Sequence record: MN850619.1
Length of the DNA stretch: 64,000 nucleotides
Direction: 5' to 3' (one strand)
From: Escherichia phage finno
The notes below the pieces were generated by a model that was not told where the DNA came from, searched no databases, and saw only the letters and a program-made list of their open reading frames with translations. The position numbers and the translations under genes were made by a program. Below, in pieces: positions 6,730 to 35,481 of this stretch (within the stretch, counting starts at the first letter, position 1; each line of letters starts with the position of its first letter).

Positions 6730-6806
6730 TGGTCTCTGTTGGAGGACTTGAACCTCCGGCCTTACCGCCCCAAACGGAACGCTCTACCAAGCTGAGCTAA
6801 ACAGAG
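6730..6806 (-). tRNA. tRNA-Pro (anticodon UGG)
   Basis: T-arm GGAGG-ACTTGAA-CCTCC, perfect acceptor and D-stem, loop UUUGGGG with G37. Confidence 0.8.
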
Positions 6807-6971: not shown

Positions 6972-8387
6972 TTACCAGATATAACGGTCAATCATTACTG
7001 CTTTGAGCATTACGCTGATTGGGTCAAACTTCTCACCACCAAGTAGAGCTTTTAAAGTGGCTGGAGAGAAACCAGATACCATTGCTACACCGTTATCCTT
7101 AACAGATACTTCGCAAGTGCCATTACGGTTTGCTAAGTACCAGAATACCAATTGTGGCATCTCATATCCAGCTTTTTTGTACTTGCTCTGAATTGCTTCA
7201 AAGTTTGTACGACCGTTAGCTCCATCAACCTGATTGAACTCCATATCAGAGAAGATGATAAGCTTACTTGGCATATCTTTCTGAGTCAAGTTGTTTCTTT
7301 TACCTGTCTCAAGAATGCGGTCAAAAGCTGCTTGTAAGTTAGTTGAGCCATATTCAACGTGTCGCATCACCTGACGATGACGGTTTCGTAAATCACCACT
7401 CAGTTCGATGAAGTGAGGGTTTGTTGAATAAACCATTAACTCGTTCTTAAAGCAACCTGTATTGCGTTCTGCTACATACAATGCAAGTGATACACCAATA
7501 TCAAGAGCAGTAATTGAACCAAAATTCACCCAAGACATTGAGCTTGAAACATCAGTCATACACAAGATGTTTTCACCTTCTGCCATCCAGTTTGGTAGTG
7601 CTTTCCACTGCTCATTGGCAACATCTGCATTACCATGCTTGATAGACTTAATCACATCGTATGGGTAAACAGCACCAGCGTTAATCTTAGTCTCACCTTT
7701 TGATAAGGACTCAATGTAAGCTTTGTAGCGTTCTCCATCTTTACGGTTAAACAGTTTTTGGTAACGTGCAGCAGCAAGTGAAGGAATCTTACTGTAGTCA
7801 ATCTTACCAAACTCATTAGCAGAGATTTTTTGCTCAACTGTATCAGATAGTGCAGACAACAGTGTGCGGTACTCTTTCTCACTCAAGTTGGCAAACTTGC
7901 AGAAACGTTTTACAAACTGTTTGTGACGTGGTTTGACTCGTGGTAACCACTTAGCTGCCAAACCTGCTGTTGCAGGGTCTAGTAATGCTGCTTCTAAATG
8001 TTTGAAGGCATCTGTCTCGAAGCGAGTGCCTACGAAGATTTTGAAGTCATCAAAACGACCAAGTTCTGCAATCTTATCCATAATGCGAAGAACCTGTGTA
8101 GGCTCTAAAACTTTATCTTCAATTGCCTGAAGCAAAACAGTTCTGAAGGCTTTACGCTCACCCATACCCTCTCGTACATCTCGCATATGCAGTAAAATAC
8201 GAACTGCAACATCAACATCCTCACGCAAAGCTTTGTAGAACAGGTCTGGTAAGATTTCTACGTTGCTACGGCTTGAACCAGCAGCTTTGTAAAAGTCCAC
8301 AAGAGCAGACATTGATGAAGTATGGTTTACAGCACCATTTTCAGTTCGACCTGCATGAAGGTGCGCATGTTTAAATAATTCGCTCAT
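6972..8387 (-). CDS. vWA-domain protein (MIDAS-like DVSSSMS); possibly DUF2828/TROVE (Ro60)-like
   Basis: 471 aa ORF; N-terminal TENGA...SALVDFYKAAGS stretch and a central DxSxS metal-site motif followed by a vWA-like region; family assignment from motif recollection only. Confidence 0.5.
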   Translation of the reverse strand: MSELFKHAHLHAGRTENGAVNHTSSMSALVDFYKAAGSSRSNVEILPDLFYKALREDVDVAVRILLHMRDVREGMGERKAFRTVLLQAIEDKVLEPTQVLRIMDKIAELGRFDDFKIFVGTRFETDAFKHLEAALLDPATAGLAAKWLPRVKPRHKQFVKRFCKFANLSEKEYRTLLSALSDTVEQKISANEFGKIDYSKIPSLAAARYQKLFNRKDGERYKAYIESLSKGETKINAGAVYPYDVIKSIKHGNADVANEQWKALPNWMAEGENILCMTDVSSSMSWVNFGSITALDIGVSLALYVAERNTGCFKNELMVYSTNPHFIELSGDLRNRHRQVMRHVEYGSTNLQAAFDRILETGKRNNLTQKDMPSKLIIFSDMEFNQVDGANGRTNFEAIQSKYKKAGYEMPQLVFWYLANRNGTCEVSVKDNGVAMVSGFSPATLKALLGGEKFDPISVMLKAVMIDRYIW

Positions 8388-16835: not shown

Positions 16836-16866
16836 AGCCTCCTTAATTGGGGGCTTTTTAATTTTT
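16836..16866 (+). terminator. Putative rho-independent terminator ending the plus-strand block
   Basis: AGCCTCC-ttaatt-GGGGGCT hairpin followed by TTTTTAATTTTT. Confidence 0.55.
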
Positions 16867-16869
16867 ATA

Positions 16870-18380
16870 AAATTTTATCGGTTGTCCCAACCTCTGGGTC
16901 ACCATCATATGTGAACAAAATATCTATCCTTCTTAACAACCTTCTTAATCTTACTCTCTATATAGTTATATAGTACTATATAGTATCTTAGTAACTATCT
17001 AGTGGTCTTAATAGCCCTCTGTATAACCCTTCTAACAAGCCCTCTAACAAGCCTTCTTAACAACCTATACAATCACCTTAACCATCCCTCTATACCCTCT
17101 TAGAAGCTCCTATACACCTCTTAATCTCTATGTCAGCTATGACACTCTCTATAGGTGTTCACTAGGTATTACTAAGCCTCTATATAGACTGTTTTAACAA
17201 ACTTAACAGGAATATCTTCACAGACCTTATCTCACAAGGTCTAACACGGTACTAACAAGGTATCTTATAAGCCTGTTTCTACCTGTATTTTTAAAAGACT
17301 GTCTAGGTAATTATTCAGAATTTTAAAATTTTTATAAAATAGGACTATCAAGTCATTTTTTAGGGTCTTTGAAGGAACTGAAAAATATCTGATTAGGATG
17401 TATATCTGCTTGGTAGCCCTTAACATCCCTGTAACATCCCCTTTGCAGAATTTTAAAATATCATTAACAATCTCTTAACAGTTATTACATCTTCTTAACA
17501 TCTCTTCAGAGGTCTTAACAGTTTATTAACAGAACTAACAAGGGTTTAACAGTTTTCTAACAAGTGCTGGATAGTCTTTACAGATGCTTAACAGATGACT
17601 AACAAGAGCTAACAAGTTAATTTTAAAGGGTTATTTTGTTAAGATAATTAACAAGTTTCTAACAAGTGTTTAATCTTTTTAACAAGCTATTAACATGGTC
17701 ACTACTCTTTTCTTATCGTTCCCTCCCCTTTCTTAGTGATTCTTTAAACATACCTCTTAAAAGCTCTGTATAGCTCTGTATAGCCCCTTTTAAGTTTCTT
17801 CCTAGTAACTACAGCCCAACTGTACAGATAGCTCTTTATAGGGCTTTACAGGGGCTTTAAAGGCTATGTCAAAGGTTCTTACAAGGCTTTTACATGGTTG
17901 TAACAGAGATTTAACAAGGGGCTAACAAGTTGCTAACAAGCATAACTATGTAGGATTTGTTAAGAAATTGTTAAGAAAATGTTAAGGGGGCTAGCATTTA
18001 CGTAACTTTTAAGCTACTTCAAAGTAACTTTTAAGCCCCTATAACATGCTTTTAAGACACTAACAAGCCCTTTTTAGTTATTCACAAGATAGCTAACGAG
18101 ATAATAAAGCTTACACCCTTATAAGATTCTTTTAAGGCTCTGAGAAGCTTTATAAAGGGCTTTTAAGGGTGAGGTAATGCAATCCCTTAAGTTAGGTTGA
18201 TAAGGCTGTTATAGGGCGTTATAGAGCGTTTAAGCGGTTACCCTTCCCTCTCGGGTTATGGGCTTATATTTAAGTTGATTTGATAAAAGGCTATAGAGTA
18301 GACTATAGAGTTATTGCTTTTTAAGGTCTGATAAGATTCTGGAAAGGAAAGGGAAAGGGTTGTATAAGGGATTTGATAGA
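16870..18380. repeat. ORF-free region packed with about 30 YTAACA(R)G motifs plus CTATAG/TATAG repeats; candidate origin or protein-binding array
   Basis: Examples: CTAACAAGCCCTCTAACAAGCCTTCTTAACAACC at ~17030; eight copies within 17460-17570; no ORF of 60 aa or more in 1.5 kb. Confidence 0.6.
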
Positions 18381-18386
18381 CGTAAA

Positions 18387-18436
18387 AAAGCCCCTATGGG
18401 AAAGGGGCTGTAAAGGTATCTGGGGCTAAATAGCCC
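18387..18436 (-). terminator. Terminator hairpins ending the minus-strand small-gene array
   Basis: Minus-sense AGCCCCTTTCCCATAGGGGCT followed by TTTTTT, plus a second GGGGCT-aaat-AGCCCC hairpin. Confidence 0.55.
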
Positions 18437-18447
18437 CGCTGCGTCGA

Positions 18448-18696
18448 TTAGTTGCAACCTTGTTTGTTGTAGTACAGGGAGACAATTTTTTCTCCCCAAT
18501 AGTGATAAGTATAACCATCCTTAAGAACTTCCTGTTTTGTTTCCTCCCAGAACTCCTCCGAAGGATTATATCCTTTGATAGTCTGACTGATAAGACCTTT
18601 CACCATTTCAAAGGCGTTATCAGTGCCTACGATGTCAAATTTAACATCCAGAGAGGAAAAACCGAACTCGTTAACAGTAGCGCGGATAGTTGCCAT
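18448..18696 (-). CDS. Hypothetical small early protein
   Basis: 82 aa ORF preceded by a conserved leader with AGGAGA RBS. Confidence 0.55.
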   Translation of the reverse strand: MATIRATVNEFGFSSLDVKFDIVGTDNAFEMVKGLISQTIKGYNPSEEFWEETKQEVLKDGYTYHYWGEKIVSLYYNKQGCN

Positions 18697-18790
18697 TTTT
18701 GAATCTCCTAGTTTAAGGGTTTTATTTAGTGGGGAGGTTGTCGCCTCCCGTTGATTAGTAATTTACTGCATGTTGGCGTATGTTGCAAGC
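18697..18790 (-). promoter_or_regulatory. Repeated promoter/leader element, type 1 (TTGCAA-N17-TAAATT, GGGAGG..CCTCCC hairpin, SD)
   Basis: Minus sense: TTGCAAcatacgccaacatgcagTAAATTACTAATCAACGGGAGGcgacaaCCTCCCCACTAAATAAAACCCTTAAACTAGGAGATTCAAAAATG. Confidence 0.55.
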
Positions 18791-19026
18791 CTTTTTTCGT
18801 TGTATTTTGTAAGAATCTCACAAGATAAAACATCATATTTTGCAACCGCGTTGCCTTTGTCGAGGTCAAAAAAGCCAAACGCTTTACCATCTTTGAATCC
18901 GACAACTTCGTAAGACTCTTTGATGATTTCACCATTGAACAAATCGCTTTCGATACGGTGGAATAATGCTACATCTTCTTTGTCGGTTGCAATTTGTAAA
19001 AGTTTGGTTAATTCTACGTTTTCCAT
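18763..19026 (-). CDS. Hypothetical small early protein
   Basis: 87 aa ORF. Confidence 0.55.
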   Translation of the reverse strand: MENVELTKLLQIATDKEDVALFHRIESDLFNGEIIKESYEVVGFKDGKAFGFFDLDKGNAVAKYDVLSCEILTKYNEKRLATYANMQ

Positions 19027-19110
19027 CTTGATGCCCCTAGTTTAAGGATTTTATTGAGTGGGGGAGGTCATCCCCCGTTAATGAGTAATTTACAGATTTT
19101 TGATTGTCTC
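19027..19110 (-). promoter_or_regulatory. Repeated promoter/leader element, type 1 variant
   Basis: CCCTAGTTTAAGGATTTTATTGAGTGGGGGAGGTCATCCCCCGTTAATGAGTAATTTACAG on the plus strand. Confidence 0.5.
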
Positions 19111-19620
19111 GTCAATGTCTTTTTCAATATCTTTTAAAGTTTTTTCTAAGTTCTTGATATTGAAAGATAAGCCCTCTCCCAATGTTTTGCTGTAACCACT
19201 AGGGCGCAAGTCATGCAGTTCGATTTCTTCCACTTCGAAGAGACTAACCAACTCACCGCTTACACTGTAAGCCATTGAAACAGTATTTGCAGGGGCTTTA
19301 TAGAACTTGTTTAAGGACTTGATAGAACGCTCATAAGCCATTTTATAACCGTTTAAAAGGTCTTTAACGTGGTTGCGAACGTTTTTACACTCATCTAAGT
19401 AAATCCCTAAGAATAGCGGTAATAACTCTGCTACAGCTTGCATAAAGTGAGAGACTACAACGGTTGCAACATTACGACGATGAACGTAATAAGCCCCGTT
19501 TTCTGATTTAGTGATGGTTGCAAAGTGTACCCCATTGCAGCGAAATTCATAGGTATCTTTAACAGGCTTAGACATTACAGCATTTGAGCGAATGTAGTTG
19601 ATAGCTTGAAATTTGTTCAT
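19090..19620 (-). CDS. Hypothetical early protein
   Basis: 176 aa ORF. Confidence 0.55.
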   Translation of the reverse strand: MNKFQAINYIRSNAVMSKPVKDTYEFRCNGVHFATITKSENGAYYVHRRNVATVVVSHFMQAVAELLPLFLGIYLDECKNVRNHVKDLLNGYKMAYERSIKSLNKFYKAPANTVSMAYSVSGELVSLFEVEEIELHDLRPSGYSKTLGEGLSFNIKNLEKTLKDIEKDIDETIKNL

Positions 19621-19805
19621 TTTGACTCTCCTAGTTTAAGGATTTTATTTAGTGGGGAGGTCATTACCTCCCGTTGATTAGTAATTTACTTGTTTTGATA
19701 GCTGATTGCAAGTAATTTTTTAAGTTTATCTTTAAAGAATCTTTTAAGTTAATCCCTTTAAGATAAACCCCCTCGAACAACATTACCAATGTCAAGGGGT
19801 ATTGT
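19621..19805 (-). promoter_or_regulatory. Type 1 leader plus upstream promoter (TTGACA-N17-TAATGT) with tandem TTGACA motif
   Basis: Leader at 19621-19700; ACCAATGTCAAGGGGTATTGTCAACAC at ~19775-19800. Confidence 0.5.
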
Positions 19806-19840
19806 CAACACTTTTTTAAAAGTTTTTTGTAAGTTATTGA

Positions 19841-20227
19841 TTAACTGATGAATATTTTTTCAGGCTTTACGTAGCTGATGCGTTGGTTTTTTAGCAGGTC
19901 ATCCCAGATTAACGCGGCGATATGGGAATAACCGGATTCACGTAATAACTTCATCGTTTTACATCTCGTTTCAAATCGGGTTGCGTAGTACTCGCTATTT
20001 AAAACCGTTTTAGTCCCTTCGTTATCTGTATGGATAATCTGCATCACTTGGAAGGGGCTTACATCCTCACCTTTATTCCATTGCTCAAAGTATTTTAGAC
20101 AATGCATAGGTGTCATCTTATCACTTACTTGAGTTGACCAAGATGAATCCGGTTTATTGGTAATTACAGTTACATAAGCCATTTTTTGAATCTCCAGTTT
20201 AGGATTTTGTTTAGTGGGGAAGGTCAT
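19841..20227 (-). CDS. Hypothetical early protein
   Basis: 128 aa ORF. Confidence 0.55.
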   Translation of the reverse strand: MTFPTKQNPKLEIQKMAYVTVITNKPDSSWSTQVSDKMTPMHCLKYFEQWNKGEDVSPFQVMQIIHTDNEGTKTVLNSEYYATRFETRCKTMKLLRESGYSHIAALIWDDLLKNQRISYVKPEKIFIS

Positions 20228-20300
20228 TCCCTCCCCGTTGATTAGTAATTTACAGATTTTTATCAGGCTTGTCTAGTCTTTTTCTATAATTATTTCATAT
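20228..20300 (-). promoter_or_regulatory. Repeated promoter/leader element, type 1
   Basis: TTGAATCTCCAGTTTAGGATTTTGTTTAGTGGGGAAGGTCATTCCCTCCCCGTTGATTAGTAATTTACAG. Confidence 0.5.
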
Positions 20301-20506
20301 TGACCGTCTACACTATCGAAATAGATACCATCTTCATCTTCTGTCTTAAAGTAACATTGTATGTCATCACTGGCGGGGTAGTCTTGCCTTGCTATCTGAC
20401 AGACCTGAACAGCATTTTCTTTACTTCCTGTAAACTCCTCAAGCCCTTTAAAATCGCATGAATGACCATTACAAATAGAAAGGATAAGATAAACGGTTGT
20501 AAGCAT
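20273..20506 (-). CDS. Hypothetical small protein with N-terminal signal/lipobox-like sequence
   Basis: 77 aa; N-terminus MLTTVYLILSICNGHSC. Confidence 0.45.
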   Translation of the reverse strand: MLTTVYLILSICNGHSCDFKGLEEFTGSKENAVQVCQIARQDYPASDDIQCYFKTEDEDGIYFDSVDGQYEIIIEKD

Positions 20507-20572
20507 GATTTAAGCCTCTTAAAAGCCCCTGTAAGGGGCTGATTAGTGTTTATAAGGTGATTGTATAGGTTT

Positions 20573-21115
20573 TCAGAAAAAGCTCTTTAAATCCTCTTCT
20601 GCGATGTTTCCCGCTAGTGTGTCCATGATGTCACAAAAAACCTGAATACTGTCCGACTGTTGAACACTTTTAGCAAGAAGCTCCAGAGACTCATCAAGAT
20701 AATTTAAATTTGGGTTATCCAATGAAGGAAGACAAAAAGGCGAAAACATCGCATTAAACTCGGTTACGTAAACCTTTTTAATCCAATTTAAATCGAAGTA
20801 TTCTGTAAAACTTGCTACGCCAGCCATATTATCACAAGAATAATCATCATTCAGCTCATCCTCTGGAATATCGAGTTCTAAGATAACAATATTTTGAGTC
20901 TTCATCTGAAAAGCTGCGGTGATAGTGGCATTGCCTAGAGCTTGCTGGATACCTTCAGAGATTATCTCTTCCTCATCGTCGCCATAGATTTTATTTTCTG
21001 GGTACACGTAAAAATTGCCGTCCATATCCGAACAATTCCATGCGCCTGATGGTTTATCACCGTTATTAATCAGGTTGAGGAAATTTTCTTGAGTAGTACC
21101 GTGAAAGCATTTCAT
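20573..21115 (-). CDS. Hypothetical acidic protein
   Basis: 180 aa ORF. Confidence 0.55.
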   Translation of the reverse strand: MKCFHGTTQENFLNLINNGDKPSGAWNCSDMDGNFYVYPENKIYGDDEEEIISEGIQQALGNATITAAFQMKTQNIVILELDIPEDELNDDYSCDNMAGVASFTEYFDLNWIKKVYVTEFNAMFSPFCLPSLDNPNLNYLDESLELLAKSVQQSDSIQVFCDIMDTLAGNIAEEDLKSFF

Positions 21116-21200
21116 TTTAGAATCTCCAGTTTAGGATTTAGTGGTAAAGCTCTTTATCTGGGGCTTAAGATATCAACTTTTAAGCCCCATGTAAAGCACT
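21116..21200 (-). promoter_or_regulatory. Repeated promoter/leader element, type 2 (TTTACA-N17-TATCTT with palindromic GGGGCTTAA..TTAAGCCCC spacer)
   Basis: Plus strand: AAAGCTCTTTATCTGGGGCTTAAGATATCAACTTTTAAGCCCCATGTAAAGCAC. Confidence 0.5.
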
Positions 21201-21404
21201 TTATTTGTTATTTTTTACAACTTTTAAAACTGCACGATAGCCTAAGCAATAAGAATCACCGAAGAGCGACCGACCCATGAAAGAATCCTCTTTTATATCC
21301 TTTGCAGTGACAGTTTTTTCTACGCCGTGAAAGAGAACTACATCACCAACTTTAATATCTTTGATGTGTGTAGTTTCAATGGTTAAACCGTTAATAATAG
21401 CCAT
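21201..21404 (-). CDS. Hypothetical small protein
   Basis: 67 aa ORF. Confidence 0.5.
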   Translation of the reverse strand: MAIINGLTIETTHIKDIKVGDVVLFHGVEKTVTAKDIKEDSFMGRSLFGDSYCLGYRAVLKVVKNNK

Positions 21405-21505
21405 TTTTGAATCTCCAGTTTAGGACTTTATTTAGTGGGGAAGGTCATTCCCGCCCCGTTGATGTGTAATTTACTCTATCTAAAAACCAGTGTCAACAAA
21501 AATTT
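21405..21505 (-). promoter_or_regulatory. Repeated promoter/leader element, type 1 (TTGACA-N17-TAAATT); identical copy at 22454-22542
   Basis: About 95 nt identical to the 22454-22542 copy, including AACCAGTGTCAACA. Confidence 0.55.
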
Positions 21506-21910
21506 TTAGAGTTCTGCATAAATTGCATCACAGACATCACGAAAATCGTGATTTGTCAAATTACGTTGTAACCAAGTGGCAAAGAAATCAGCGATTGCAA
21601 AATTAGCGTCATACTCGACGGATAGCCATACTTTAACAGCAAACCGAAACATTTTCAAATCAAGCTCTTTATTCATTACCTTAGATTTGCCTAACATGTC
21701 GGACATTTCATATTGTGCACCGTCTAGCGTGATACCTGCTGCAACGTCAGCCAATGAGTTTTTTACGTTTTCAACGTCTAAGATAACGCTTTGAATCTTC
21801 CCAATAATGTTGTGCAATGTCTCATCAGGCGCTGATGATGTCAGAACATTAATCCGGTTAACGGTCAAACGCGCTTTTAAGATTGATAACTCACGGTTAT
21901 TAATAGCCAT
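21506..21910 (-). CDS. Hypothetical protein
   Basis: ORF track 21506..21925; start trimmed to MAINN because the first residues lie in the repeat element and the RBS GGAGAACTTAAAA precedes this ATG. Confidence 0.5.
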   Translation of the reverse strand: MAINNRELSILKARLTVNRINVLTSSAPDETLHNIIGKIQSVILDVENVKNSLADVAAGITLDGAQYEMSDMLGKSKVMNKELDLKMFRFAVKVWLSVEYDANFAIADFFATWLQRNLTNHDFRDVCDAIYAEL

Positions 21911-21996
21911 TTTTAAGTTCTCCAATTTAGGATTTAGGGGTAAAGCTCTTTATCTGGGGCTTACTTTATCGAACTATAAGCCCCCTGTAAAGTACT
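21911..21996 (-). promoter_or_regulatory. Repeated promoter/leader element, type 2
   Basis: AAAGCTCTTTATCTGGGGCTTACTTTATCGAACTATAAGCCCCCTGTAAAGTAC. Confidence 0.5.
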
Positions 21997-22269
21997 TTAT
22001 ACTAAATGCAGCTTTTTACCTTTTACTATGATGTAACTCGATGCGCTATTGCTTTGCACATCCTGATAAATTCTGCGCAAACGGCCTTCGTAGTATACTT
22101 TCCAACTGGTTGGAATCTTTTTCCCGTATCCTGTAGCAGTTTTTTGTAGTCCTGCAAGTTGCCAATCTAAGATATGTTGTTCGGCTTGTAAATCCTCGAA
22201 GTGCATTACACCGTTCACATAGTGACGAAGGGTTACGTTTAAGGTGCGACCGTTGTTAGTAGTATACAT
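21997..22269 (-). CDS. Hypothetical protein
   Basis: ORF track 21997..22311; start trimmed to MYTTNNG (ATG at 22267-22269). Confidence 0.5.
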   Translation of the reverse strand: MYTTNNGRTLNVTLRHYVNGVMHFEDLQAEQHILDWQLAGLQKTATGYGKKIPTSWKVYYEGRLRRIYQDVQSNSASSYIIVKGKKLHLV

Positions 22270-22294
22270 TTTAAAAGCTCCTAGTTTAAGGATT

Positions 22295-22453
22295 TTATTT
22301 TGACAGTTCACTAATTAAGACATCAAAGACTATATCATTATCTGCTACAGTTGCAACACCAGTGATATAATCAATTTCTAAGATAACAACAACTTTCGTA
22401 CATAAACCGTCATCTATATCATTCCATACAACTTTATCACCTGCACAAAACAT
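22295..22453 (-). CDS. Hypothetical small protein (52 aa, below the ORF-track cutoff)
   Basis: Hand translation MFCAGDKVVWNDIDDGLCTKVVVILEIDYITGVATVADNDIVFDVLISELSK, preceded by the type 1 leader and RBS. Confidence 0.4.
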   Translation of the reverse strand: MFCAGDKVVWNDIDDGLCTKVVVILEIDYITGVATVADNDIVFDVLISELSK

Positions 22454-22542
22454 TTTTTGAATCTCCAGTTTAGGACTTTATTTAGTGGGGAAGGTCATTC
22501 CCGCCCCGTTGATGTGTAATTTACTCTATCTAAAAACCAGTG
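22454..22542 (-). promoter_or_regulatory. Repeated promoter/leader element, type 1 (duplicate of 21405-21505)
   Basis: Identical sequence TTGAATCTCCAGTTTAGGACTTTATTTAGTGGGGAAGGTCATTCCCGCCCCGTTGATGTGTAATTTACTCTATCTAAAAACCAGTGTCAACA. Confidence 0.55.
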
Positions 22543-22875
22543 TCAACAGTTTTGTTTTCGTTTGTTCAATTCTTGGACAATTACAGCGTAATAGTCTTTT
22601 AAGTCACTGATATTTAAAGCATTTATCAGAGAGTTATAATCATCGACTAACTGAAAATCATCTTTGAAGATGTCACTTATCTGATAGGTTTTCGCTTTAT
22701 ATCTGAAGCTCATCTCTAGCCGCTTTATTTGCTCATCACTGAGGCGCCCTAGAAAGCTTTCTACAAGGTTATTTCTAACCTGCTGTGTGATTGCCTTATT
22801 TGCTAGATTATAGGCTTTATATGCCTTATAAAGCGCGAGAATGGCAATGATTGCAGTGATGCCAGTCATTAACAT
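22543..22875 (-). CDS. Hypothetical membrane-anchored protein
   Basis: 110 aa; N-terminal TM helix MLMTGITAIIAILALYKAY. Confidence 0.55.
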   Translation of the reverse strand: MLMTGITAIIAILALYKAYKAYNLANKAITQQVRNNLVESFLGRLSDEQIKRLEMSFRYKAKTYQISDIFKDDFQLVDDYNSLINALNISDLKDYYAVIVQELNKRKQNC

Positions 22876-23165
22876 GGTGTTTCCTCTTTACGTGATACTT
22901 TGCCACTTACAGTTATCTCATAAGATTCTAATAAATCGCTTTTAGACTTTACAGGGATTTTAAAAGTATCATCATAAATATTGACCTGCAATACAGGTTT
23001 TTTATACTCCCTGCAACTATTCCATAAGCAAATCACTACACGACGGCCTTTTATTTTTCCGTGTAACCATTCCATAACATCATGGCTATTCCTTGATGTC
23101 TCAATAAAATCAATTTTGTTAAGTAACTTGCTTAGATTTTCACGGACTTTATTTGATAATTTCAT
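22869..23165 (-). CDS. Hypothetical protein, translationally coupled to the downstream gene
   Basis: 98 aa ORF overlapping the next start by 7 nt. Confidence 0.5.
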   Translation of the reverse strand: MKLSNKVRENLSKLLNKIDFIETSRNSHDVMEWLHGKIKGRRVVICLWNSCREYKKPVLQVNIYDDTFKIPVKSKSDLLESYEITVSGKVSRKEETPC

Positions 23166-23256
23166 TTTAGAGTCTCCTAGTTTAAGGGTTAATTTGATAA
23201 AGCTCTTTATCTGGGGCTATCATATCAGCTTGTTAGCCCCGTGTAAAGAGGTCTAT
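23166..23256 (-). promoter_or_regulatory. Repeated promoter/leader element, type 2 variant
   Basis: AAAGCTCTTTATCTGGGGCTATCATATCAGCTTGTTAGCCCCGTGTAAAGAGG. Confidence 0.45.
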
Positions 23257-23769
23257 TTAGTTCTTAAAGATATTCATCACTGAATCTTTTAATGCTTCCA
23301 AACGTTCTAATACTTCAGCCTCTGCGTCTGAATTGCTCACCTCTTCTTTTAATCTATCTTCTAAATCCTCACCGTCACTATAGCACCAATCAAAGGCATA
23401 TCCTAGATAAAAACTCTCTAAAACCGTGTTGTCATTTGCATCGATAACTTTCGCGGCAAGGTTGTATTCTGAAGCTTCTAAATCTCTTTCTAGTTCTTTC
23501 TGTAAGCTGATGTAAGCCTGTTTTGATGGGTTTTCCCGGCCTTGTTTTGCATAGTCACTAGAAAGCTGCTTAAGGCTATAATTTAAAGGGATTGCATATT
23601 TAAAATCGTTACGCTGACAGTTAGGGTTTTTAATAGTCACGCCGCCTTGATGGTCATCTGTAAACTTCCAATTATCAAGATTATGGCTTGCTTCGTAGCA
23701 ATTTACCGCTTCATAGATAATGGTGAATTTTTCTTTTACAACTTCAAAGGTAGCGTCTACAGTTTTCAT
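23257..23769 (-). CDS. Hypothetical acidic protein
   Basis: 170 aa ORF. Confidence 0.55.
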   Translation of the reverse strand: MKTVDATFEVVKEKFTIIYEAVNCYEASHNLDNWKFTDDHQGGVTIKNPNCQRNDFKYAIPLNYSLKQLSSDYAKQGRENPSKQAYISLQKELERDLEASEYNLAAKVIDANDNTVLESFYLGYAFDWCYSDGEDLEDRLKEEVSNSDAEAEVLERLEALKDSVMNIFKN

Positions 23770-23854
23770 TTTTGAATCTCCAATTTAGGATTTAGTGGTA
23801 AAGCTCTTTATCTGGGGCTTAAGATATCAACTTTTAAGCCCCTTGTAAAGTACT
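23770..23854 (-). promoter_or_regulatory. Repeated promoter/leader element, type 2
   Basis: Near-identical to the 21116-21200 copy. Confidence 0.5.
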
Positions 23855-24148
23855 TTATTTGTTATTTTTCAGCTTTGCATAACTTCTCATTGTACGAATG
23901 GGGGATGTTAAGGCTATGCGTCTAATATATGCCTTTTTCGTGTATACATTTGTCTTCCCGATAGTGCTTACACATGTAAAAAGGTTTATCGGTGAATTTT
24001 TTAGCTTCAACTGTTTATCAGCCTTCACGCCCCACCTTACAGCAGATTGTTTTCCGTTGTCAACCACTTTCCCGCATAACTTTTTAGCCATAGCGCGAGC
24101 GTCATCACGAGTTTTTGCAGTAATTACAACGTTTTTGATAATAGCCAT
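23855..24148 (-). CDS. Hypothetical basic protein
   Basis: ORF track 23855..24163; start trimmed to MAIIKN after the repeat/RBS. Confidence 0.5.
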   Translation of the reverse strand: MAIIKNVVITAKTRDDARAMAKKLCGKVVDNGKQSAVRWGVKADKQLKLKNSPINLFTCVSTIGKTNVYTKKAYIRRIALTSPIRTMRSYAKLKNNK

Positions 24149-24234
24149 TTTTAAGTTCTCCAATTTAGGATTTAGTGGTAAAGCTCTTTATCTGGGGCTT
24201 ACTTTATCGAACTATAAGCCCCTTGTAAAGTACT
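24149..24234 (-). promoter_or_regulatory. Repeated promoter/leader element, type 2
   Basis: Minus-sense TTTACA-aggggcttatagttcga-TAAAGT with palindromic GGGGCTTA..TAAGCCCC. Confidence 0.5.
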
Positions 24235-24618
24235 TTATTCGTTAATTTTGAAGATTGTTACATAACCATCGCTCCCGATGATTTGCGATACCCCAGCTTT
24301 TTCTACTTTATAGCCCATATTTTCAAGATGATAAACAGCATCATCATAACCATATGCGCCACCCTGATAACGTCGCTTATCGCATTTTATCAGGTTTTTA
24401 CCACGTCCAGCAAGTGCATTCAGTACAGCTTTTTCACTTGATAGCGTACCATCTAACATGGTTGCCGTGTAATGGTTGATTCTATTCCCGTTTACATCAT
24501 ACTTAAAATTGAATGCGTGAACAACAATAATGTTGCCTTTAAAATTCTCATCAAGTGACTTCTCCAGTACTTTGCGAAAGTTGTCTTTGTTGATGAATTT
24601 CGGTGCACGATAAGCCAT
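24235..24618 (-). CDS. Hypothetical protein
   Basis: 127 aa ORF. Confidence 0.55.
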   Translation of the reverse strand: MAYRAPKFINKDNFRKVLEKSLDENFKGNIIVVHAFNFKYDVNGNRINHYTATMLDGTLSSEKAVLNALAGRGKNLIKCDKRRYQGGAYGYDDAVYHLENMGYKVEKAGVSQIIGSDGYVTIFKINE

Positions 24619-24704
24619 TTTTGAATCTCCTAGTTTAAGGTTAGTTAGTAAAGCTCTTTATCTGGGGCTTACTTTATCGAACTATAAGCCCCTTGTAAAG
24701 TACT
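24619..24704 (-). promoter_or_regulatory. Repeated promoter/leader element, type 2
   Basis: Near-identical to the 24149-24234 copy. Confidence 0.5.
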
Positions 24705-24911
24705 TTATTTATCGTAGTAATAAATTGCTGTCTGTCTTGTAAACTTCTTAGTATTTCTTGTCAGATAGCAATTAGAATTAATAGCCGTTTCTACATAGTT
24801 GCAATAGTCAGCTTCTGATATTCTGGACCACACGCCACAGATTTGCATGTAAAAACGTTTTGCCTTTGTGTTAATGTTAGTTGTAACCATCAATTCGCGA
24901 CTGTACAGCAT
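24705..24911 (-). CDS. Hypothetical small Cys-containing protein (first gene of the array)
   Basis: 68 aa ORF. Confidence 0.5.
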   Translation of the reverse strand: MLYSRELMVTTNINTKAKRFYMQICGVWSRISEADYCNYVETAINSNCYLTRNTKKFTRQTAIYYYDK

Positions 24912-29469: not shown

Positions 29470-29505
29470 GCACAAAATACAAATAAAAAAGGCCGCCGAA
29501 GCAGC
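29470..29505 (-). terminator. Rho-independent terminator after rIIB
   Basis: Minus-sense AAGGCTGCTTCGGCGGCCTT followed by TTTTTTATT. Confidence 0.55.
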
Positions 29506-29523
29506 CTTTTAAGAAATTACTTA

Positions 29524-30633
29524 TTAGATTTCACGTTTACGTTGGGAGATAAGTTCTCCAGCAGTGCCAACGATGACATGCAAAGCTTCAGTCTTACCAT
29601 CCCATTCTTTCAGCACTTTACGTTGATTATCAACGATTGCTGCAACTTCATAACGAGACGAACGCATCTTCATATCGTTGTAATCAGTTGGAACAGATAC
29701 AACATCTCGTGGATGGACACGAACCTTCAGGATTGTATCACCTGAGAAGCAACGAACGTAATCCCAAGCACCAACATGAAGACCTTGAGAGCAAGTTACG
29801 TTACGGTTATTATCAACCATCCAACGTGGCATCTCTACAATGTTACCCAAATCATTAGGTACTCTGTATGTGTGGGAGTCAACCAGCTTACCTTCACGAG
29901 TAGATACTTTCTTCCAACCAATGATGTAGCCTTCTTCATCGATTTCAACATCAAGGTGGGATACGAAGCCCCAAAGTTGTTCTACAGAGTCTTTAGATGG
30001 GTTTTCCATCAGTTTTTCGAAGAACATTACAAGGCGTTCAAAACCCTTATCTCCAGTCTTCATCATGTGAAGAATACGGTCAACCAGAGTAGAACGCATC
30101 TCAACAGCACCGTAGAATAACTTATCCCCTTTGATGGTGATAGCGCCCTGAGTGAAGTTTTCGATAGACTTACGAATGTTCATCAGTTCGAAAGCTTTCT
30201 TATACTCACCGGATACAACAGCCATCACGATTTCTTTGTAGTTCGGATGGGTAGATTCAACGATTTCAGAATCTGCACCGAAAGTCATGATAACAGAGTC
30301 ACCAGTAATCATGTACTCAATCTGGTTGCCATTCTGCATAGCTTCATGCAGTTTATTTACCGGAGCTTTCTGTACATCCTCTTTAACAGCCTTTTTAACT
30401 GGCTTGTCAGCTTTCTTCTTAAAGGTCTTAGCAACTTGCTTTAAAGTCTTCGTAGCCGGTGTAGAAGTTGCCTTTTTATTCCCTTTTAAGGTTGCTTCAT
30501 GACGCTCTACAGCACGACCGACTGAACGGGTTGAGGTGTTAAATTTCTGTGCAATAGCTGTTTTAGTCAGCTTGCCCTCTTTAACCAGTTTGTAAATTTC
30601 TGCGTCAATCTGTGCTTTAGTTTTAGTAGTCAT
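29524..30633 (-). CDS. rIIB: rIIB-like protein
   Basis: 369 aa; C-terminal TCSQGLHVGAWDYVRCF...KVRVHPRDVVSVPTDYNDMKMRSSRYEV closely matches the conserved T4 rIIB C-terminus. Confidence 0.8.
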   Translation of the reverse strand: MTTKTKAQIDAEIYKLVKEGKLTKTAIAQKFNTSTRSVGRAVERHEATLKGNKKATSTPATKTLKQVAKTFKKKADKPVKKAVKEDVQKAPVNKLHEAMQNGNQIEYMITGDSVIMTFGADSEIVESTHPNYKEIVMAVVSGEYKKAFELMNIRKSIENFTQGAITIKGDKLFYGAVEMRSTLVDRILHMMKTGDKGFERLVMFFEKLMENPSKDSVEQLWGFVSHLDVEIDEEGYIIGWKKVSTREGKLVDSHTYRVPNDLGNIVEMPRWMVDNNRNVTCSQGLHVGAWDYVRCFSGDTILKVRVHPRDVVSVPTDYNDMKMRSSRYEVAAIVDNQRKVLKEWDGKTEALHVIVGTAGELISQRKREI

Positions 30634-30659
30634 CTTATTACTCTCTCTTTTTAGTTAAT

Positions 30660-30705
30660 AACTCATTTTGTGAGGCTATTATAAGGGGCTTCAAAGCCCC
30701 TTGTC
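30660..30705 (-). promoter_or_regulatory. Consensus sigma70-type promoter for rIIB with palindromic spacer
   Basis: Minus-sense TTGACA-AGGGGCTTTGAAGCCCC(17)-TTATAAT; the spacer is a perfect hairpin GGGGCTT/AAGCCCC. Confidence 0.6.
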
Positions 30706-30712
30706 AAGCACT

Positions 30713-33079
30713 TTAATCGTAAACTGTAGTCCCTTCTGGAACACATTTTACATCAAAGCCTAAGAACTTACTCACTTCAATAGGTGACACTTTATTCCAA
30801 TCTAAATGGGAAAGCAAGAAGTTTTCTTGTTTTCTTTTTGAAAGGTAGTTTGTCACCTTGATAACCATACGGTCACCAGCTTTCTTAATTTTCTTGTACA
30901 GTTTTGTATCATTGTCAAGGCATTCTTTCAAAGTTTGCAATCTACTAATAGTGTAAGTATATGCAAATGGTGCAGCAACATACTGGATTTTACCGAAAAT
31001 TGCCTCTACAGCCTCTTCGTTACCTTCTAGGAAGATAGTTTTGCTAGTATCTCGTGAGTAGCAATAACCACGAGAAATCTTCCTGTTATTGAATGTAAAG
31101 TTTCTGGCAATAATCCAACTGCTTGTAAGGTCAAGAACACCATTCATGTAGGTGCGTGTCATGTACCTGTTATGATTAATCCAATGAACATCAGTTAAGC
31201 TGTCGTTCAAGAGCTTCTCATCTACTTCAATCCAGTCTTCTGGTATCTTTTTCCAATTTGCTTTTCGGAAAACATAGACTGTCTTTCCAATAACATTAGC
31301 AACTGACTTAGCTACATCTTCTGGAGATGAGCAAAAGCATTCGCCATCAACTGTGTCACCTACTGCCTTAATGTAAAGCTGGGGTTCTTCAATTGTGTCT
31401 AAGTCTTCTGACACCTCTTTGTAGGAGGCTACACCTTCTGCTGGAACAGCTTTCCAGAGTTTTACAACACCTCTTACAGCTTCTTTACGCTGGTAATGGT
31501 GTTCCTTATCAGACATTTTCACAATCTTTAACAAGCTTTTATCAAGTTTGTGTAGATTGATTAAATCATCTAAATCTTTTTCAGTCGAGAATACAAACAC
31601 AATGCCATTGTATCTGTGAAACAGGCTTGACTCGTTGGCGTAGTCTCGACATGCACCACGCAGAATCTGATTGCGGCCTACAGTCTTCTCAGTACCGTTT
31701 TTATTGCGACGGTCATTAATAACAAACAAAAACTGTTCAATTTGGCTTTTACGCATTGCGCCAAAGATATTGAACATACTTGCCTCTTGAGTGTAGGAAA
31801 GTGCTGTTGCACGAATCTTACTCTCTAAAGAGTTGAACTTGACATAAGCAACTGGATTATAAAGATAATCTACTTTAGGGATATTGTTCCCGTTTCTATC
31901 AACCTTAATATTACCTTTGCCGTCACGTTCATAAATGACTGAGCCGTCTTCTGCGTAGATAATCCCACGACGAATGTTTAGTAATTCTTCTTCCAGAGTA
32001 TCAAGTTTAACACCACCCCACTCTAGCTTTGGACACACAGCATTAAACATTTCTCGTGAGTTCAAACGTAACTCTGCATAAGCCTGTGCAGCATCCATGA
32101 GTGTAGGTTGGCTATTAACTTTCTTGATAACATCCTTTGTAATTGCTTCAGTTATCTTTTTAGTAGCCTCAATGATAACATTTTTTGTCGTATCATTCAT
32201 CTGCAATGCTTCACGAGAAGCTGCAATAGCAACTGAACCAATAGGCATGTAAATGTTTACAAGGTCTACGCTCCTACGGAAAAACTCTGGCAAGACTTTG
32301 AAGAAATCATCACCAAGTAATGCTTCCATATTAACTGGATAGGCAATATTACCCATCACCACATTAAACTCTGTCCTGTTGCCACTAGAACGCCAGCTTT
32401 GCTTATGAATCATAGCATCATAAACACCCTCTTCACGGGCAATGACGTTCATATCTGCTAACACATCATCATATACAATATTGCTTTCTGGTTTTACAGC
32501 AAAGTATGAATATACGTGACCAGCCTCTTCAAAGAACTTTGAAATACGGTGGTCAGCAACTGCTACACGTACAGCTAAACCATTGGGTTCATTTGTTGGG
32601 TTAGTAGTAAGTTTAGTTACTTGAGGGATACCATTCTCAAGGTAAACAGAGTACTTATTAACAACACCATCAACATAACTAGATACTGTGAATGACTGAG
32701 CAATTGCAAATGGGGATTTTGAGCCGATACCCATTGCACCAATGTAATCATTAGAGTCATTCTTCGTAGAAGCCCCATAGTTCAGATACAAACTCATTAC
32801 TTTGTCATGGGTTAAACCAGTTCCAAAGTCACGGACTTCAAAGTAAGGCTCAAATCGAGTAGGTAAATGCACATGGAACGGGATGTTCTCTTTTCCAGCT
32901 TCTTTCTGAGCATCTACTGCATTACATGACAGTTCACGAATCACTGCCCTTTCTTTAAATGTGTATACACCAGAACTCAAAAGGCTGAACATTTCAGGTG
33001 TCATTGTAATCTGTGCTTGAGATGTCTCCAAAGAAGTTGAACTCTTAATCACTTCTGCGTGGTCATTTACCATGCGCAT
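30713..33079 (-). CDS. rIIA: rIIA-like protein (N-terminal GHKL-type ATPase fold)
   Basis: 788 aa; FKERAVIRELSCNAVDA...VRDFGTGL...NDYIGAMGIGSKSPF aligns by eye with the T4 rIIA N-terminus. Confidence 0.85.
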   Translation of the reverse strand: MRMVNDHAEVIKSSTSLETSQAQITMTPEMFSLLSSGVYTFKERAVIRELSCNAVDAQKEAGKENIPFHVHLPTRFEPYFEVRDFGTGLTHDKVMSLYLNYGASTKNDSNDYIGAMGIGSKSPFAIAQSFTVSSYVDGVVNKYSVYLENGIPQVTKLTTNPTNEPNGLAVRVAVADHRISKFFEEAGHVYSYFAVKPESNIVYDDVLADMNVIAREEGVYDAMIHKQSWRSSGNRTEFNVVMGNIAYPVNMEALLGDDFFKVLPEFFRRSVDLVNIYMPIGSVAIAASREALQMNDTTKNVIIEATKKITEAITKDVIKKVNSQPTLMDAAQAYAELRLNSREMFNAVCPKLEWGGVKLDTLEEELLNIRRGIIYAEDGSVIYERDGKGNIKVDRNGNNIPKVDYLYNPVAYVKFNSLESKIRATALSYTQEASMFNIFGAMRKSQIEQFLFVINDRRNKNGTEKTVGRNQILRGACRDYANESSLFHRYNGIVFVFSTEKDLDDLINLHKLDKSLLKIVKMSDKEHHYQRKEAVRGVVKLWKAVPAEGVASYKEVSEDLDTIEEPQLYIKAVGDTVDGECFCSSPEDVAKSVANVIGKTVYVFRKANWKKIPEDWIEVDEKLLNDSLTDVHWINHNRYMTRTYMNGVLDLTSSWIIARNFTFNNRKISRGYCYSRDTSKTIFLEGNEEAVEAIFGKIQYVAAPFAYTYTISRLQTLKECLDNDTKLYKKIKKAGDRMVIKVTNYLSKRKQENFLLSHLDWNKVSPIEVSKFLGFDVKCVPEGTTVYD

Positions 33080-33611: not shown

Positions 33612-33640
33612 AGAAATTAAAAAGGCTCCCGTAGGAGCCT
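33612..33640 (-). terminator. Rho-independent terminator after the NAMPT-like gene
   Basis: Minus-sense AGGCTCCTACGGGAGCCT followed by TTTTAATTTCT. Confidence 0.6.
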
Positions 33641-33654
33641 CTTATCATATACTT

Positions 33655-35436
33655 TTAAAGCTGCTTGTCAATATTATTTCGAATATCACCAAGAGTTGTG
33701 TAACCGAACTGCTCAGAGTCACTAAAGACTAAACGTAAAGCACAAGCTGGGTGGTCAAGTACATCTGCAAAACTCTGGAATCCATAGCCATCTACAGCTT
33801 TCAGCTTATCACCATCCCACATAGGTGCTACACCACCAAAGGCAGATTTCTTAACACCACTATCTGTTTTAGGGTCTTTTGCAAGCATAATCTCTTTACC
33901 ACCAATGCTTGCAAGAGTTGCTTTGACAGCAAATGCAAAGGTGTCACGAGTCATGTACTGGTAAGTGTAAGAACCTACGCCAAACACCACGTTAGAGCTT
34001 GCAAAACCCATTTCATACAGACGCTTCAGGATTTCGTTTGCACGTTCCAGTGTGATAGAGTCACCATAGATAAGGCCGATATGCTCGTCCAGTACCTTAA
34101 ATCCTTTAGAGTTAATAGTTCCCCCAAAGATGTTGTACAGTGTCTTAATAGCTCCATCAATCTCAGCTACAGGACGTGTTACAACGTTTGCAGAGCCAAC
34201 CATATAAGCATTTTTCAACATCACTGTATCAGCAACTTCAAAGTCTTCTCGGTCAACAACCATTTCGTAGCCTTCTGACAGTAGCCATCCAGCAATACCA
34301 TAGCTGATGTTTTCAAGCTTCATGTTCAGAACAGCATTCAGCATTGTGTCACTGGCTTCCAGCTTGCTTAGGTGCTCGTAATAAGCCTTTTTAGCACACT
34401 CTAAGTGGATTGCTTTATAACCTGTGACAATATGTACAGGGTCTCCAGAGTCAGGACGAATTACCAGTTTACCGTCACGTTCCATAATTTCTTTACGAAG
34501 TGCTGGTAAGATTTCTGACACAGTTCTCCAGAAGTTATAAGTGTCTGAAACAATACTTGCAATACCAGTTGGGTAAGTTTCTGTTAAGAAACGACGGAAG
34601 GTTTGTAACTCACCTTTAAATCGTCTTTCTTCTTCAACCAACTCGTTACCACCTTCCCAAGCAATGTTTGCACACATTACAGAGTGTTCAGTGGCTGGTA
34701 CAGAGCTTCCAATATCAGAGATTGGATAGGTCTGCCCATAGATACGTTTAGCCGTGTATACAGCAGGGAAGCTATCAGTCCCTTTAAAGCTGGTTAAGTG
34801 TCCTACAGCGTTGAATGCGTCATCAGTAAAGCCGGACATACCACGCATAGCAAAGTCATGGCACTGATAAGGTAAATGCAAGTCGTTGTCGCAAGTGAGG
34901 TCAGCCCACTTCTTACAGATACGTTTGTAGTGCAATGCAATAGTTGCAATGGTGCAAGCCTTCCAAATCTCAGCAGAGAAAGCGTCTTCTAGATAACCTG
35001 CTACCCAATGGAAACCTGAAACAGTGTTCTGGAAGACAATCATTGGAACACGCATAGGAACAACTGTACCTTCTTCTACAGCGTATACTTCAACTGGTAG
35101 ATAGCCTAAATCGTGAAGTGCTTCCCAATGCTCTCGACCGATAGCATCTTTACCCAGAACACCATTCATGACTTCTAAGATTTCGTCAACTGCTCCTTTT
35201 TTATCACGTTCAAAGAAAGTGGCGTTCCAGTGGTCTATCAAGTAATCTTTAACAAAACGTTGAATACCAAAAGCTACTACACCATCAATTGCTAAGGGGC
35301 TGTTAAACCATTTGTCGCTACGTGGTGTCAGGTTGAACATCAAGTAATCTGTTGCACTGGGGTATTGGTAAACATGGCCAGATTTGTAAGCGTCCGCGTT
35401 TAAACCTGCTGGTACTGCATAAAGTGATTTAGTCAT
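33655..35436 (-). CDS. nadV: Nicotinamide phosphoribosyltransferase family protein (NadV/NAMPT-like; possibly the Namat-type nicotinamide ADPR transferase of a NAD+ reconstitution pathway)
   Basis: 593 aa; NADAYKSGH, VPATEHSVM, VSDTYN, IRPDSGDP, GDSI and FGVGSYTYQYMTRDT match conserved NAMPT motifs; ~100-aa insertion relative to canonical NAMPT. Confidence 0.8.
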   Translation of the reverse strand: MTKSLYAVPAGLNADAYKSGHVYQYPSATDYLMFNLTPRSDKWFNSPLAIDGVVAFGIQRFVKDYLIDHWNATFFERDKKGAVDEILEVMNGVLGKDAIGREHWEALHDLGYLPVEVYAVEEGTVVPMRVPMIVFQNTVSGFHWVAGYLEDAFSAEIWKACTIATIALHYKRICKKWADLTCDNDLHLPYQCHDFAMRGMSGFTDDAFNAVGHLTSFKGTDSFPAVYTAKRIYGQTYPISDIGSSVPATEHSVMCANIAWEGGNELVEEERRFKGELQTFRRFLTETYPTGIASIVSDTYNFWRTVSEILPALRKEIMERDGKLVIRPDSGDPVHIVTGYKAIHLECAKKAYYEHLSKLEASDTMLNAVLNMKLENISYGIAGWLLSEGYEMVVDREDFEVADTVMLKNAYMVGSANVVTRPVAEIDGAIKTLYNIFGGTINSKGFKVLDEHIGLIYGDSITLERANEILKRLYEMGFASSNVVFGVGSYTYQYMTRDTFAFAVKATLASIGGKEIMLAKDPKTDSGVKKSAFGGVAPMWDGDKLKAVDGYGFQSFADVLDHPACALRLVFSDSEQFGYTTLGDIRNNIDKQL

Positions 35437-35481
35437 CTTTTAATCTCTCTCAAAATGGGGCTTTCAAGCCCCTATAAAGTT

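Follow-up and report, generated by a model that had tools for sequence, protein, structure and literature searches.

Consensus sigma70 promoters fused to stem-loops (promoter-early stem-loops, PeSLs) have been described in the T4-like bacteriophages RB49 and phi1 (Arbiol et al. 2010, PMC2839356). According to the same work, the stem-loops "generally involve GGGG...CCCC", and the elements fall into five positional classes, of which the commonest place the stem-loop between the -35 and -10 hexamers or have it overlap the -10 hexamer. A PeSL extends from the stop codon of the upstream gene to the Shine-Dalgarno sequence of the downstream one. PeSLs cluster beside ORFans in hyperplastic regions, and the authors proposed a role for them in modular shuffling, and recombination between such motifs; indel and replacement boundaries at the cassettes, as well as mini-circles, are the marks of this shuffling. 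One PeSL drove approximately 13,000 Miller units of lacZ, and the stem-loop of an RB49 PeSL cut lacZ expression as strongly as rrnB T1 (PMC2839356). PeSLs were extended to the PST/T4 and nt-1/KVP40 groups by Comeau et al. (2014, PMC4122927).

Felix O1-like phages are widely used in Salmonella typing and biocontrol. The Felix O1 genome paper gives five predicted promoters, none of them at the rIIB site considered here, and notes that transcription past the many terminators is not understood. In the open-access literature no paper was found in which Felix O1-like phages are described in terms of PeSLs, and no mapping of transcript starts or 3' ends in these phages was found in the searchable literature. 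The current work describes a promoter/stem-loop element between the rIIA and rIIB genes in 64,000 nucleotides of Escherichia phage finno (sequence record MN850619.1); this whole stretch is called "the window" below.

The rII junction of the window is 94–98% identical to that of Felix O1-like phages (Felixounavirus, Ounavirinae), in whose records the two flanking genes are labelled rIIA and rIIB. A Pfam search gave no family for either flanking protein, so the identity of the genes rests on the annotation of the relatives and on tblastn. The RIIB product shares more than 90% identity with Felix O1-like RIIB and 33–41% with T4-like RIIB. In Ounavirinae rIIA and rIIB are anti-Rex and anti-defence genes. 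Of 251 records, 211 have an intact, syntenic junction, and no shuffling is seen there.

Both genes are encoded by the minus strand, to which all features described below also belong. The upstream ORF (rIIA, 788 aa) ends with the stop codon TAA at 30713–30715, and 79 nt separate this stop from the ATG (30633–30631) of the rIIB coding sequence (29524–30633, 369 aa). Within the gap the minus strand reads TTGACA-AGGGGCTTTGAAGCCCCT-TATAAT from 30707 to 30678. The -35 hexamer (30702–30707), which lies 5 nt downstream of the rIIA stop codon, and the -10 hexamer (30678–30683) both match the consensus in six positions of six, and the 18-nt spacer between them (30684–30701) is palindromic throughout. 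The stem-loop occupies 30683–30702, 10 nt past the rIIA stop, and consists of AAGGGGCT (30702–30695), the loop TTGA (30694–30691) and AGCCCCTT (30690–30683). From the standard sigma70 geometry, transcription is predicted to start at the A in position 30671, 7 nt past the -10 hexamer. A Shine-Dalgarno-like sequence GAGAGAG, kept in the relatives, precedes the rIIB start at 30641–30647. The 19 nt upstream of the -35 hexamer (CAGTTTACGATTAAAGTGC) are approximately 63% A+T vs 61% genome-wide, i.e., not richer.

The initial annotation of this DNA reported perfect -35 and -10 hexamers in the gap between rIIA and rIIB, and a consensus scan bears this out: the site is the sole exact 12/12 sigma70 match in the 64-kb window. 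Some details have to be corrected. The element occupies 30678–30707 and not 30660–30705, a shift of a few bases, and the spacer is 18 nt long rather than 17 nt; the miscount was hidden because the -10 box had been written as the 7-mer TTATAAT. The palindrome GGGGCTT/AAGCCCC said to lie exactly between the hexamers is indeed there but is longer, with 8-bp arms that overlap each hexamer by one base, taking in the last base of the -35 hexamer and the first base of the -10 hexamer. From 0.08 to 0.10 exact 12/12 sites with a spacer of 16–18 nt are expected by chance per window, and a perfect stem of at least 8 bp occurs in only 1.1e-4 of random 20-mers drawn from the window. A chance origin of the composite of promoter and stem is excluded. 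The exact composite is present once per genome.

We compared the junction with 30 IMG/VR loci, in which RIIB is 57–96% identical, and with Mooglevirus and Suspvirus records. The -35 hexamer is TTGACA in 29 of the 30 IMG/VR relatives and TTGACT in the remaining one. The -10 hexamer, TATAAT in the window, reads TAGAAT in the majority of relatives, and a few have TAAAAT, so that the third position alone varies. This position is the least critical one of the hexamer. The relatives have an 11/12 hexamer match with a spacer of 17–18 nt: 18 nt in Felixounavirus and 17 nt in Mooglevirus and Suspvirus relatives (GGGGCTgaaaAGCCCCT) and in phages resembling them. The -35 hexamer, the stem, and the -10 hexamer are kept across these three genera, with diverged flanks on both sides. 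Such a substitution pattern is the one that selection for a sigma70 promoter would be predicted to leave. In the GenBank record of phage ASO1A the site is annotated as a predicted promoter with one mismatch, and the palindrome is not mentioned. Together with the conservation of the hexamers in more than 30 relatives, this annotation upholds the earlier assignment of the promoter to rIIB, and we regard a predicted sigma70 promoter for rIIB as well supported. A point against this reading is that a spacer of 18 nt rich in G+C is less than optimal for sigma70.

The palindrome proved to be conserved in related phages; its absence from them was one of the observations that, according to the initial annotation, would refute its reading. 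In Felixounavirus, Mooglevirus, and Suspvirus the stem GGGGCT/AGCCCC is invariant, and the 4-nt loop varies (TTGA, TCAA, GAAA, GCAA). The invariant stem may be recognized in a sequence-specific manner. One form of such recognition, by a repressor, was suggested at the outset. On this reading the dyad GGGGCT-N4-AGCCCC would be a double-stranded DNA operator for a dimeric repressor of the phage or the host, which would switch the rIIB promoter off, or on in the MerR style. The dyad symmetry fits the spacer exactly, and half-sites that stay invariant over three genera around a variable 4-bp centre and between variable flanks are what is expected of an operator. Moreover, the hexamers GGGGCT and AGCCCC are over-represented 3–5 times in the window, many of them at promoter-like sites of the small-gene array described below. 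An operator should, however, recur as the same dyad with a fixed spacing of half-sites at several co-regulated promoters, and we found separations of both 4 nt and 16–17 nt, also away from promoters. In particular, the arms of the other promoter-associated GGGGCT/AGCCCC pairs are 16–17 nt apart, not 4 nt. A sister hairpin with a 4-nt loop, GGGGCT-tgaa-AGCCCC at 35457–35472, located between an upstream gene and a co-directional nadV-like gene, has no promoter hexamers around it. The spacer length of 17–18 nt in the rIIB element also differs from the 19–20 nt of MerR-type promoters. The hairpins of more distant relatives weigh further against this reading, as shown below, and overall we consider an operator unlikely.

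As RNA, the hairpin of the window has an energy of -13.3 kcal/mol, and the fold of a 41-nt segment of the sense strand has a z-score of -2.8. Because the palindrome of the window is perfect, both strands fold equally well, and the strand on which the structure matters cannot be told from the window sequence alone. The invariance of the stem in the close relatives means that there are no compensatory changes among them, so distant genera were used for the analysis of covariation. A stable hairpin is present shortly 3' of the rIIA stop codon in every Ounavirinae genus examined, and the stems differ: GGGGCUG-GAAA-CAGCCCU in Erwinia phages, GUGGUGGC-CUAACAA-GCCACCAU in Pectobacterium phages, A(A/G)GUGGUCU-AAU(A/G)-AGGCCACUU in Hafnia phages, and a 15-bp stem in Yersinia phage P778. 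At the Erwinia and Pectobacterium junctions no sigma70 hexamers were found around the hairpin. In Hafnia phages the hairpin overlaps a weaker -10 hexamer, and in P778 a -10-like hexamer lies inside the loop.

There are 1, 2, and 4 G·U pairs in the stems of the Hafnia and Yersinia phages, and these give the sense strand a much more stable fold than the antisense strand has (-12.1 vs -7.5, -11.8 vs -4.6, and -22.7 vs -8.1 kcal/mol); this asymmetry comes from the distant relatives alone, whose hairpins may be non-homologous to that of the window. Three of the nine distinct tetraloops are of the GNRA kind on the sense strand (GAAA, GCAA, GUGA; P approximately 2e-3). The Felixounavirus loops UUGA and UCAA are not GNRA, and their orientation flips freely. 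The G·U asymmetry, the GNRA loops, and the persistence of a hairpin whose stem has changed indicate that what is conserved is a stem-loop in the RNA where the rIIA message ends; in some genera a putative promoter overlaps it. A search against Rfam 15 gave no match at the gathering score and two sub-threshold matches at chance level (E = 0.15 and 0.47).

These observations bear on both of the mechanisms put forward in the initial annotation, a repressor operator or a structure-sensitive promoter, and speak against either one. Stems of unrelated sequence, G·U pairs (which are mismatches in DNA), hairpins without a promoter, and the other arm spacings are not what a DNA-binding protein with one dyad would leave. 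A structure-sensitive promoter would need the palindrome to form a cruciform under supercoiling, which would gate the binding of RNA polymerase. The spacer repeat, a perfect one of 8+4+8, is suitable for that, and the loop-inversion polymorphism TTTGAA/TTCAAA demonstrates that replication does produce mispairing in the DNA repeat. But at physiological superhelicity 8-bp arms are short to be extruded stably, mismatches in the stem (C·A in the relatives L004 and L031, as well as G·T pairs) weaken extrusion further, and the Erwinia and Pectobacterium phages carry the hairpin where there is no promoter to be gated. A cruciform switch therefore appears extremely improbable.

If the hairpin works as RNA, one role for it would be efficient intrinsic termination. 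rIIB would then be completely insulated and expressed only from its own promoter. The stability of the hairpin does equal that of the seven canonical terminators of the window (-12 to -16 kcal/mol), and the RB49 precedent mentioned above, with a stem-loop comparable to rrnB T1 (PMC2839356), also favours this role. The tail is different. The run of U directly after the hairpin, by which an intrinsic terminator is recognized, is absent from the rIIB junction: among the 8 nt that follow, the junction hairpins have 0–3 U (2 after the full stem in the window) vs 5–7 U in the terminators. Counted from the last G-C pair, the tail is UUAUAAU in the window, i.e., the -10 box, and UUAGAAU in most relatives; as RNA, the -10 hexamer UAUAAU makes a weak U-rich tail. 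Its TransTermHP-style score is -3.4 in the window and from -1.6 to -3.6 in the relatives (-3.0 to -3.4 for the two tail sequences given), vs -4.4 to -5.9 for the seven canonical terminators of the window. Both the formula of the score and its cut-off of -2.5 are those of TransTermHP. So weak a tail suggests that termination is partial at best. In addition, there is no promoter after the hairpin in the Erwinia and Pectobacterium phages, so rIIB must be expressed there by read-through, with which partial termination at the junction would be consistent. We therefore hold complete insulation by an efficient terminator to be improbable. Given the absence of a U-tract, the hairpin most likely acts not as a strong terminator but as a leaky attenuator, or else it would stabilize the rIIA mRNA by halting 3' exonucleases. 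Terminator features are present in the record of phage Barry, inside rIIA and on the opposite strand; they do not correspond to the junction hairpin.

Hairpins and promoters are also combined at neighbouring junctions, in other registers. Downstream of rIIB there is a canonical intrinsic terminator with a C(UUCG)G hairpin and U6 (29487–29510), whose T-tract is overlapped by a TATAAT promoter; the ASO1A record annotates a terminator and a promoter there. The nadV-like gene ends inside a promoter TTGACA-16-TATGAT (33671–33644), with which its stop codon overlaps, and a canonical terminator (33643–33620) abuts this promoter, the whole composite occupying 33620–33671.

The minus-strand small-gene array at 18.3–24.8 kb contains two repeated intergenic cassettes, D1 and D2, six copies each. 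D1 has the form TTTACA-N17-(TATCTT, TAAAGT or TATGAT), where the arms GGGGCTTA and TAAGCCCC bracket the -10 hexamer: the 5' arm lies in the spacer as TT(T)ACA-N-GGGGCTTA, and the loop contains the -10-like hexamer, past which comes the 3' arm. Its copies are located at 24664–24699 (TTTACA-N17-TAAAGT, with the GGGGCTTA/TAAGCCCC arms), 24194–24229 (same design), 23814–23849 (TTTACA-N17-TATCTT), 21956–21991, and 21160–21195, with a D1-like cassette TTTACA-CGGGGCTAACAAGCTGA-TATGAT-AGCCCC at 23213–23247. D2 consists of TTGACA, TTGCAA or TTGACG, N17, and TAAATT, with a G/C hairpin approximately 10 nt past the -10 hexamer. The copy at 22485–22546 (TTGACA-N17-TAAATT) has a hairpin GGGGCGGG/CCTTCCCC at that distance, and the copy at 21435–21496 has a 95-nt core identical to the one at 22454–22548. 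The others are at 20214–20275 (TAGACA-N17-TAAATT and a hairpin), 19652–19711 (TTGCAA-N17-TAAATT, GGGAGGT/ACCTCCC), 19058–19115 (TTGACG-N17-TAAATT, GGGGGA/TCCCCC), and 18729–18788 (TTGCAA-N17-TAAATT, GGGAGG/CCTCCC). The initial annotation saw the palindrome-in-spacer design again in the type 2 elements of this array. Cassettes of hairpin and promoter do recur there, but in a different register, since D1 has the -10 hexamer in the loop and D2 has the hairpin past it.

The array is hyperplastic: at least 80% of it is covered in 10 of 253 related records, vs 211 of 251 for the rII junction. Most ends of the homology blocks shared with Felix O1, Barry, and Alf5 lie 8–50 nt from a cassette. On another reading, the element at the rII junction would be a conserved stretch of homology shared with the promoter cassettes of the array, or a remnant of their recombination. 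Its hairpin would then have little regulatory role, and a PeSL would serve recombination rather than termination. Besides the positions of the block ends, the near-identity of the 5' half TT(G/T)ACA-A-GGGGCTT in the rIIB element and the D1 cassettes fits such an origin, and recombination between the motifs is what the PeSL paper itself proposes (PMC2839356). Yet the rIIA–rIIB junction is intact and syntenic in the same 211 records, the exact composite occurs only once in a genome, and a relic would not retain a stable hairpin through a complete turnover of the stem between genera. A mere recombination relic at this junction is hence an unlikely explanation.

A G/C hairpin that fills the spacer of a consensus promoter is also present in unrelated viral contigs, so the design is recurrent. 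An unclassified phage of approximately 87 kb carries TTGACA-AGGGGCT(GCAA/GTGA)AGCCCC-TA(C/T)AAT, and several contigs of up to 60 kb carry TTGACA-GGGGGCTTCCAGCCCCC-TATAAT. For one unrelated phage with the motif (L061/L072) megablast found no relative; its large ORFs are homing endonucleases.

The explanation that we favour, and consider probable, is that two signals are superimposed at the junction, a sigma70 promoter for rIIB in the DNA and a 3' stem-loop of the rIIA message in the RNA. In double-stranded DNA the element would be a host sigma70 early promoter that directs initiation near 30671. In RNA it would form the 8-bp stem-loop of approximately -13 kcal/mol, and would do so only when transcription comes in from rIIA, since no other transcripts contain the whole spacer. 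In such transcripts the stem-loop would set the 3' end of the rIIA mRNA by leaky termination or attenuation, UUAUAAU being a poor U-tract; alternatively, it would block 3' exonucleases and so stabilize the rIIA mRNA. Transcripts initiated at the promoter would start 3' of the hairpin and escape its effect, so that the expression of rIIB would be uncoupled from that of rIIA. An RNA stem-loop that shares its DNA with a promoter in this way would make the element a PeSL-type cassette with the stem-loop between the -35 and -10 hexamers.

A further suggestion goes beyond the two superimposed signals. The absence of U-tracts, the conservation over three genera, the 3–5 times over-representation of the arms, and the location at promoters and between cistrons are features that could be expected of a dedicated signal. 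Stem-loops of the GGGGCU type could then be a phage-specific signal read by a dedicated phage factor; candidates are an RNA-binding antiterminator, a processing nuclease, or a recombination protein that acts on extruded DNA. We regard this as rather unlikely. If true, it would couple the timing of early genes to the shuffling of cassettes, and it would mean that PeSL-type mobile regulatory cassettes act well outside the T4-like phages.

The superimposed-signal reading offers a concrete picture of how rIIA and rIIB may be uncoupled in Felix O1-like phages. If confirmed, it would show that compact cassettes of promoter and stem-loop occur beyond the T4-like phages and that they organize the early regions of Felix O1-like phages too. 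For genome annotation, it suggests that G+C-rich hairpins that lack a U-tract and lie within predicted promoters should be treated as dual-use signals and not be ignored. For engineering, the 30-bp element is predicted to be a ready-made insulator combined with a strong promoter. The gain in understanding is incremental and not fundamental. This type of cassette has already been described in T4-like phages.

Several known arrangements can be compared with the rIIB element. In T4, rIIB has its own promoter or promoters near the end of rIIA, and the two cistrons are not strictly co-expressed. In T4 the rIIB promoters are located within the coding sequence of rIIA, and among them is a middle promoter that depends on MotA. 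A separate rIIB promoter by the end of rIIA is thus common to both, whereas the window has a single predicted promoter of the host consensus type, which is intergenic and fused to a hairpin. Promoters of the MerR family have a dyad operator in a spacer of 19–20 bp and require their cognate regulator. The rIIB element likewise has a palindrome between the -35 and -10 hexamers; however, its spacer is 17–18 nt, and the comparative evidence favours pairing at the RNA level. With intrinsic terminators it shares a G+C-rich hairpin of approximately -13 kcal/mol directly after a stop codon, but the hairpin lacks a U-tract and its tail score is inferior to those of all seven terminators of the window.

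The closest likeness is to the PeSLs. Differences exist: the phage belongs to the Ounavirinae (Felix O1-like) and is not T4-like; the copy at rIIB is single and lies between two conserved syntenic genes, without shuffling; the -35 hexamer is not preceded by a marked AT-rich block, and the spacer is 18 nt; and the promoter and terminator activities of the element are predicted from the sequence. The points of agreement concern the anatomy. As in a PeSL (TTGACA-N17-TATAAT), a perfect or near-perfect sigma70 promoter is joined to a stem-loop of a G-run and a C-run, which here fills the space between the -35 and -10 hexamers, as in the commonest PeSL class. Like a PeSL, the element extends from a stop codon, that of rIIA, to the Shine-Dalgarno sequence and start of rIIB, with GAGAGAG (30647–30641) and the ATG (30633) at the 3' end of the cassette. 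Its sister cassettes are repeated in a hyperplastic array of small ORFans, where homology breaks at the cassettes. Given this feature-by-feature anatomical match, the rIIB element is best explained as a predicted promoter/stem-loop cassette of the PeSL type.

The promoter of rIIB in the window, which carries a palindrome in its spacer, belongs to a design that is not confined to Felix O1-like phages. The composite motif TTGACA-AGGGGCT-N4-AGCCCC-TA(C/T)AAT is also found in an unclassified phage of ~87 kb, represented by two IMG/VR contigs: 3300017655_000001 (locus L061, positions 4094-4116) and 3300042533_000005 (locus L072, positions 7545-7567). There the composite has a 17-nt spacer and GNRA-type loops, and the gene downstream of it is not rIIB but one for a small membrane protein. 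A megablast search against the phage collection returned no relatives of this phage. Furthermore, unrelated viral contigs of up to 60 kb from IMG/VR (loci L077 and L078-L083) carry TTGACA-(A)GGGGGCTTCCAGCCCCC-TATAAT, a perfect consensus promoter with a spacer of 17-18 nt that is itself a hairpin (-14 kcal/mol). Thus the design is recurrent across phage lineages.

At the loop of the rIIB palindrome (window 30691-30694), Felixounavirus genomes (loci L003-L031 and L047-L076) have either GGGGCTTTGAAGCCCC or GGGGCTTCAAAGCCCC, and no single-step intermediates between the two were seen at these loci. One variant is the exact reverse complement of the other, their centres being TG and CA, respectively. 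The pair looks like the outcome of a loop inversion via template switching at the palindrome.

The most extreme overlap of hairpin and promoter is that at the rIIA-rIIB junction of Yersinia phage vB_YenM_P778 (L036), where the hairpin is 15 bp long, including four G·U pairs, and its loop takes in TTAAAT, a -10-like hexamer. Within the window, the stop codon of the nadV-like gene falls inside a TTGACA-16-TATGAT promoter, and a canonical terminator hairpin directly adjoins the -10 element of this promoter (33620-33671). Transcription would begin within the 5' arm of the hairpin, so that transcripts from this promoter would be predicted to escape the terminator that halts upstream ones.

A cluster of 25 tRNA genes, typical for Felix O1-like phages, occupies 1822-6806 on the minus strand. 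An ORF-poor stretch of ~1.4 kb (16850-18310) extends from the plus-strand genes, the last of which ends at 16824, to the 3' end of the minus-strand small-gene array. It contains 15 copies of TAACAAG, all on the same strand and especially within 17033-18067, many of them spaced by 10-11 nt, with further short periodic repeats beside them. These iteron-like repeats are a candidate for a replication origin or a protein-binding array. The 3' end of this array (18389-18437) bears two unlike hairpins in tandem: first GGGGCT-attt-AGCCCC, which has no U-tract, and then AGCCCCT-ttcccat-AGGGGCT, a canonical terminator with TTTTTT behind it. The two hairpin classes are thus neighbours there.

The array itself (18300-24800) is a hyperplastic region, at least 80% of which is covered in only 10 of the 253 relatives. 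Its small ORFs are set apart by 12 repeated promoter and hairpin cassettes of two families, D1 and D2. Two D2 copies of 95 nt each (21404-21498 and 22454-22548), 1050 nt apart, are 100% identical, an indication that the array has recently undergone a duplication or gene conversion. The ends of homology blocks with Felix O1, Barry, and Alf5 mostly lie at most 8-50 nt from a cassette. By its sequence organization, the array would represent modular shuffling like that proposed for the promoter-early stem-loop (PeSL) cassettes, in a phage outside the T4-like group.
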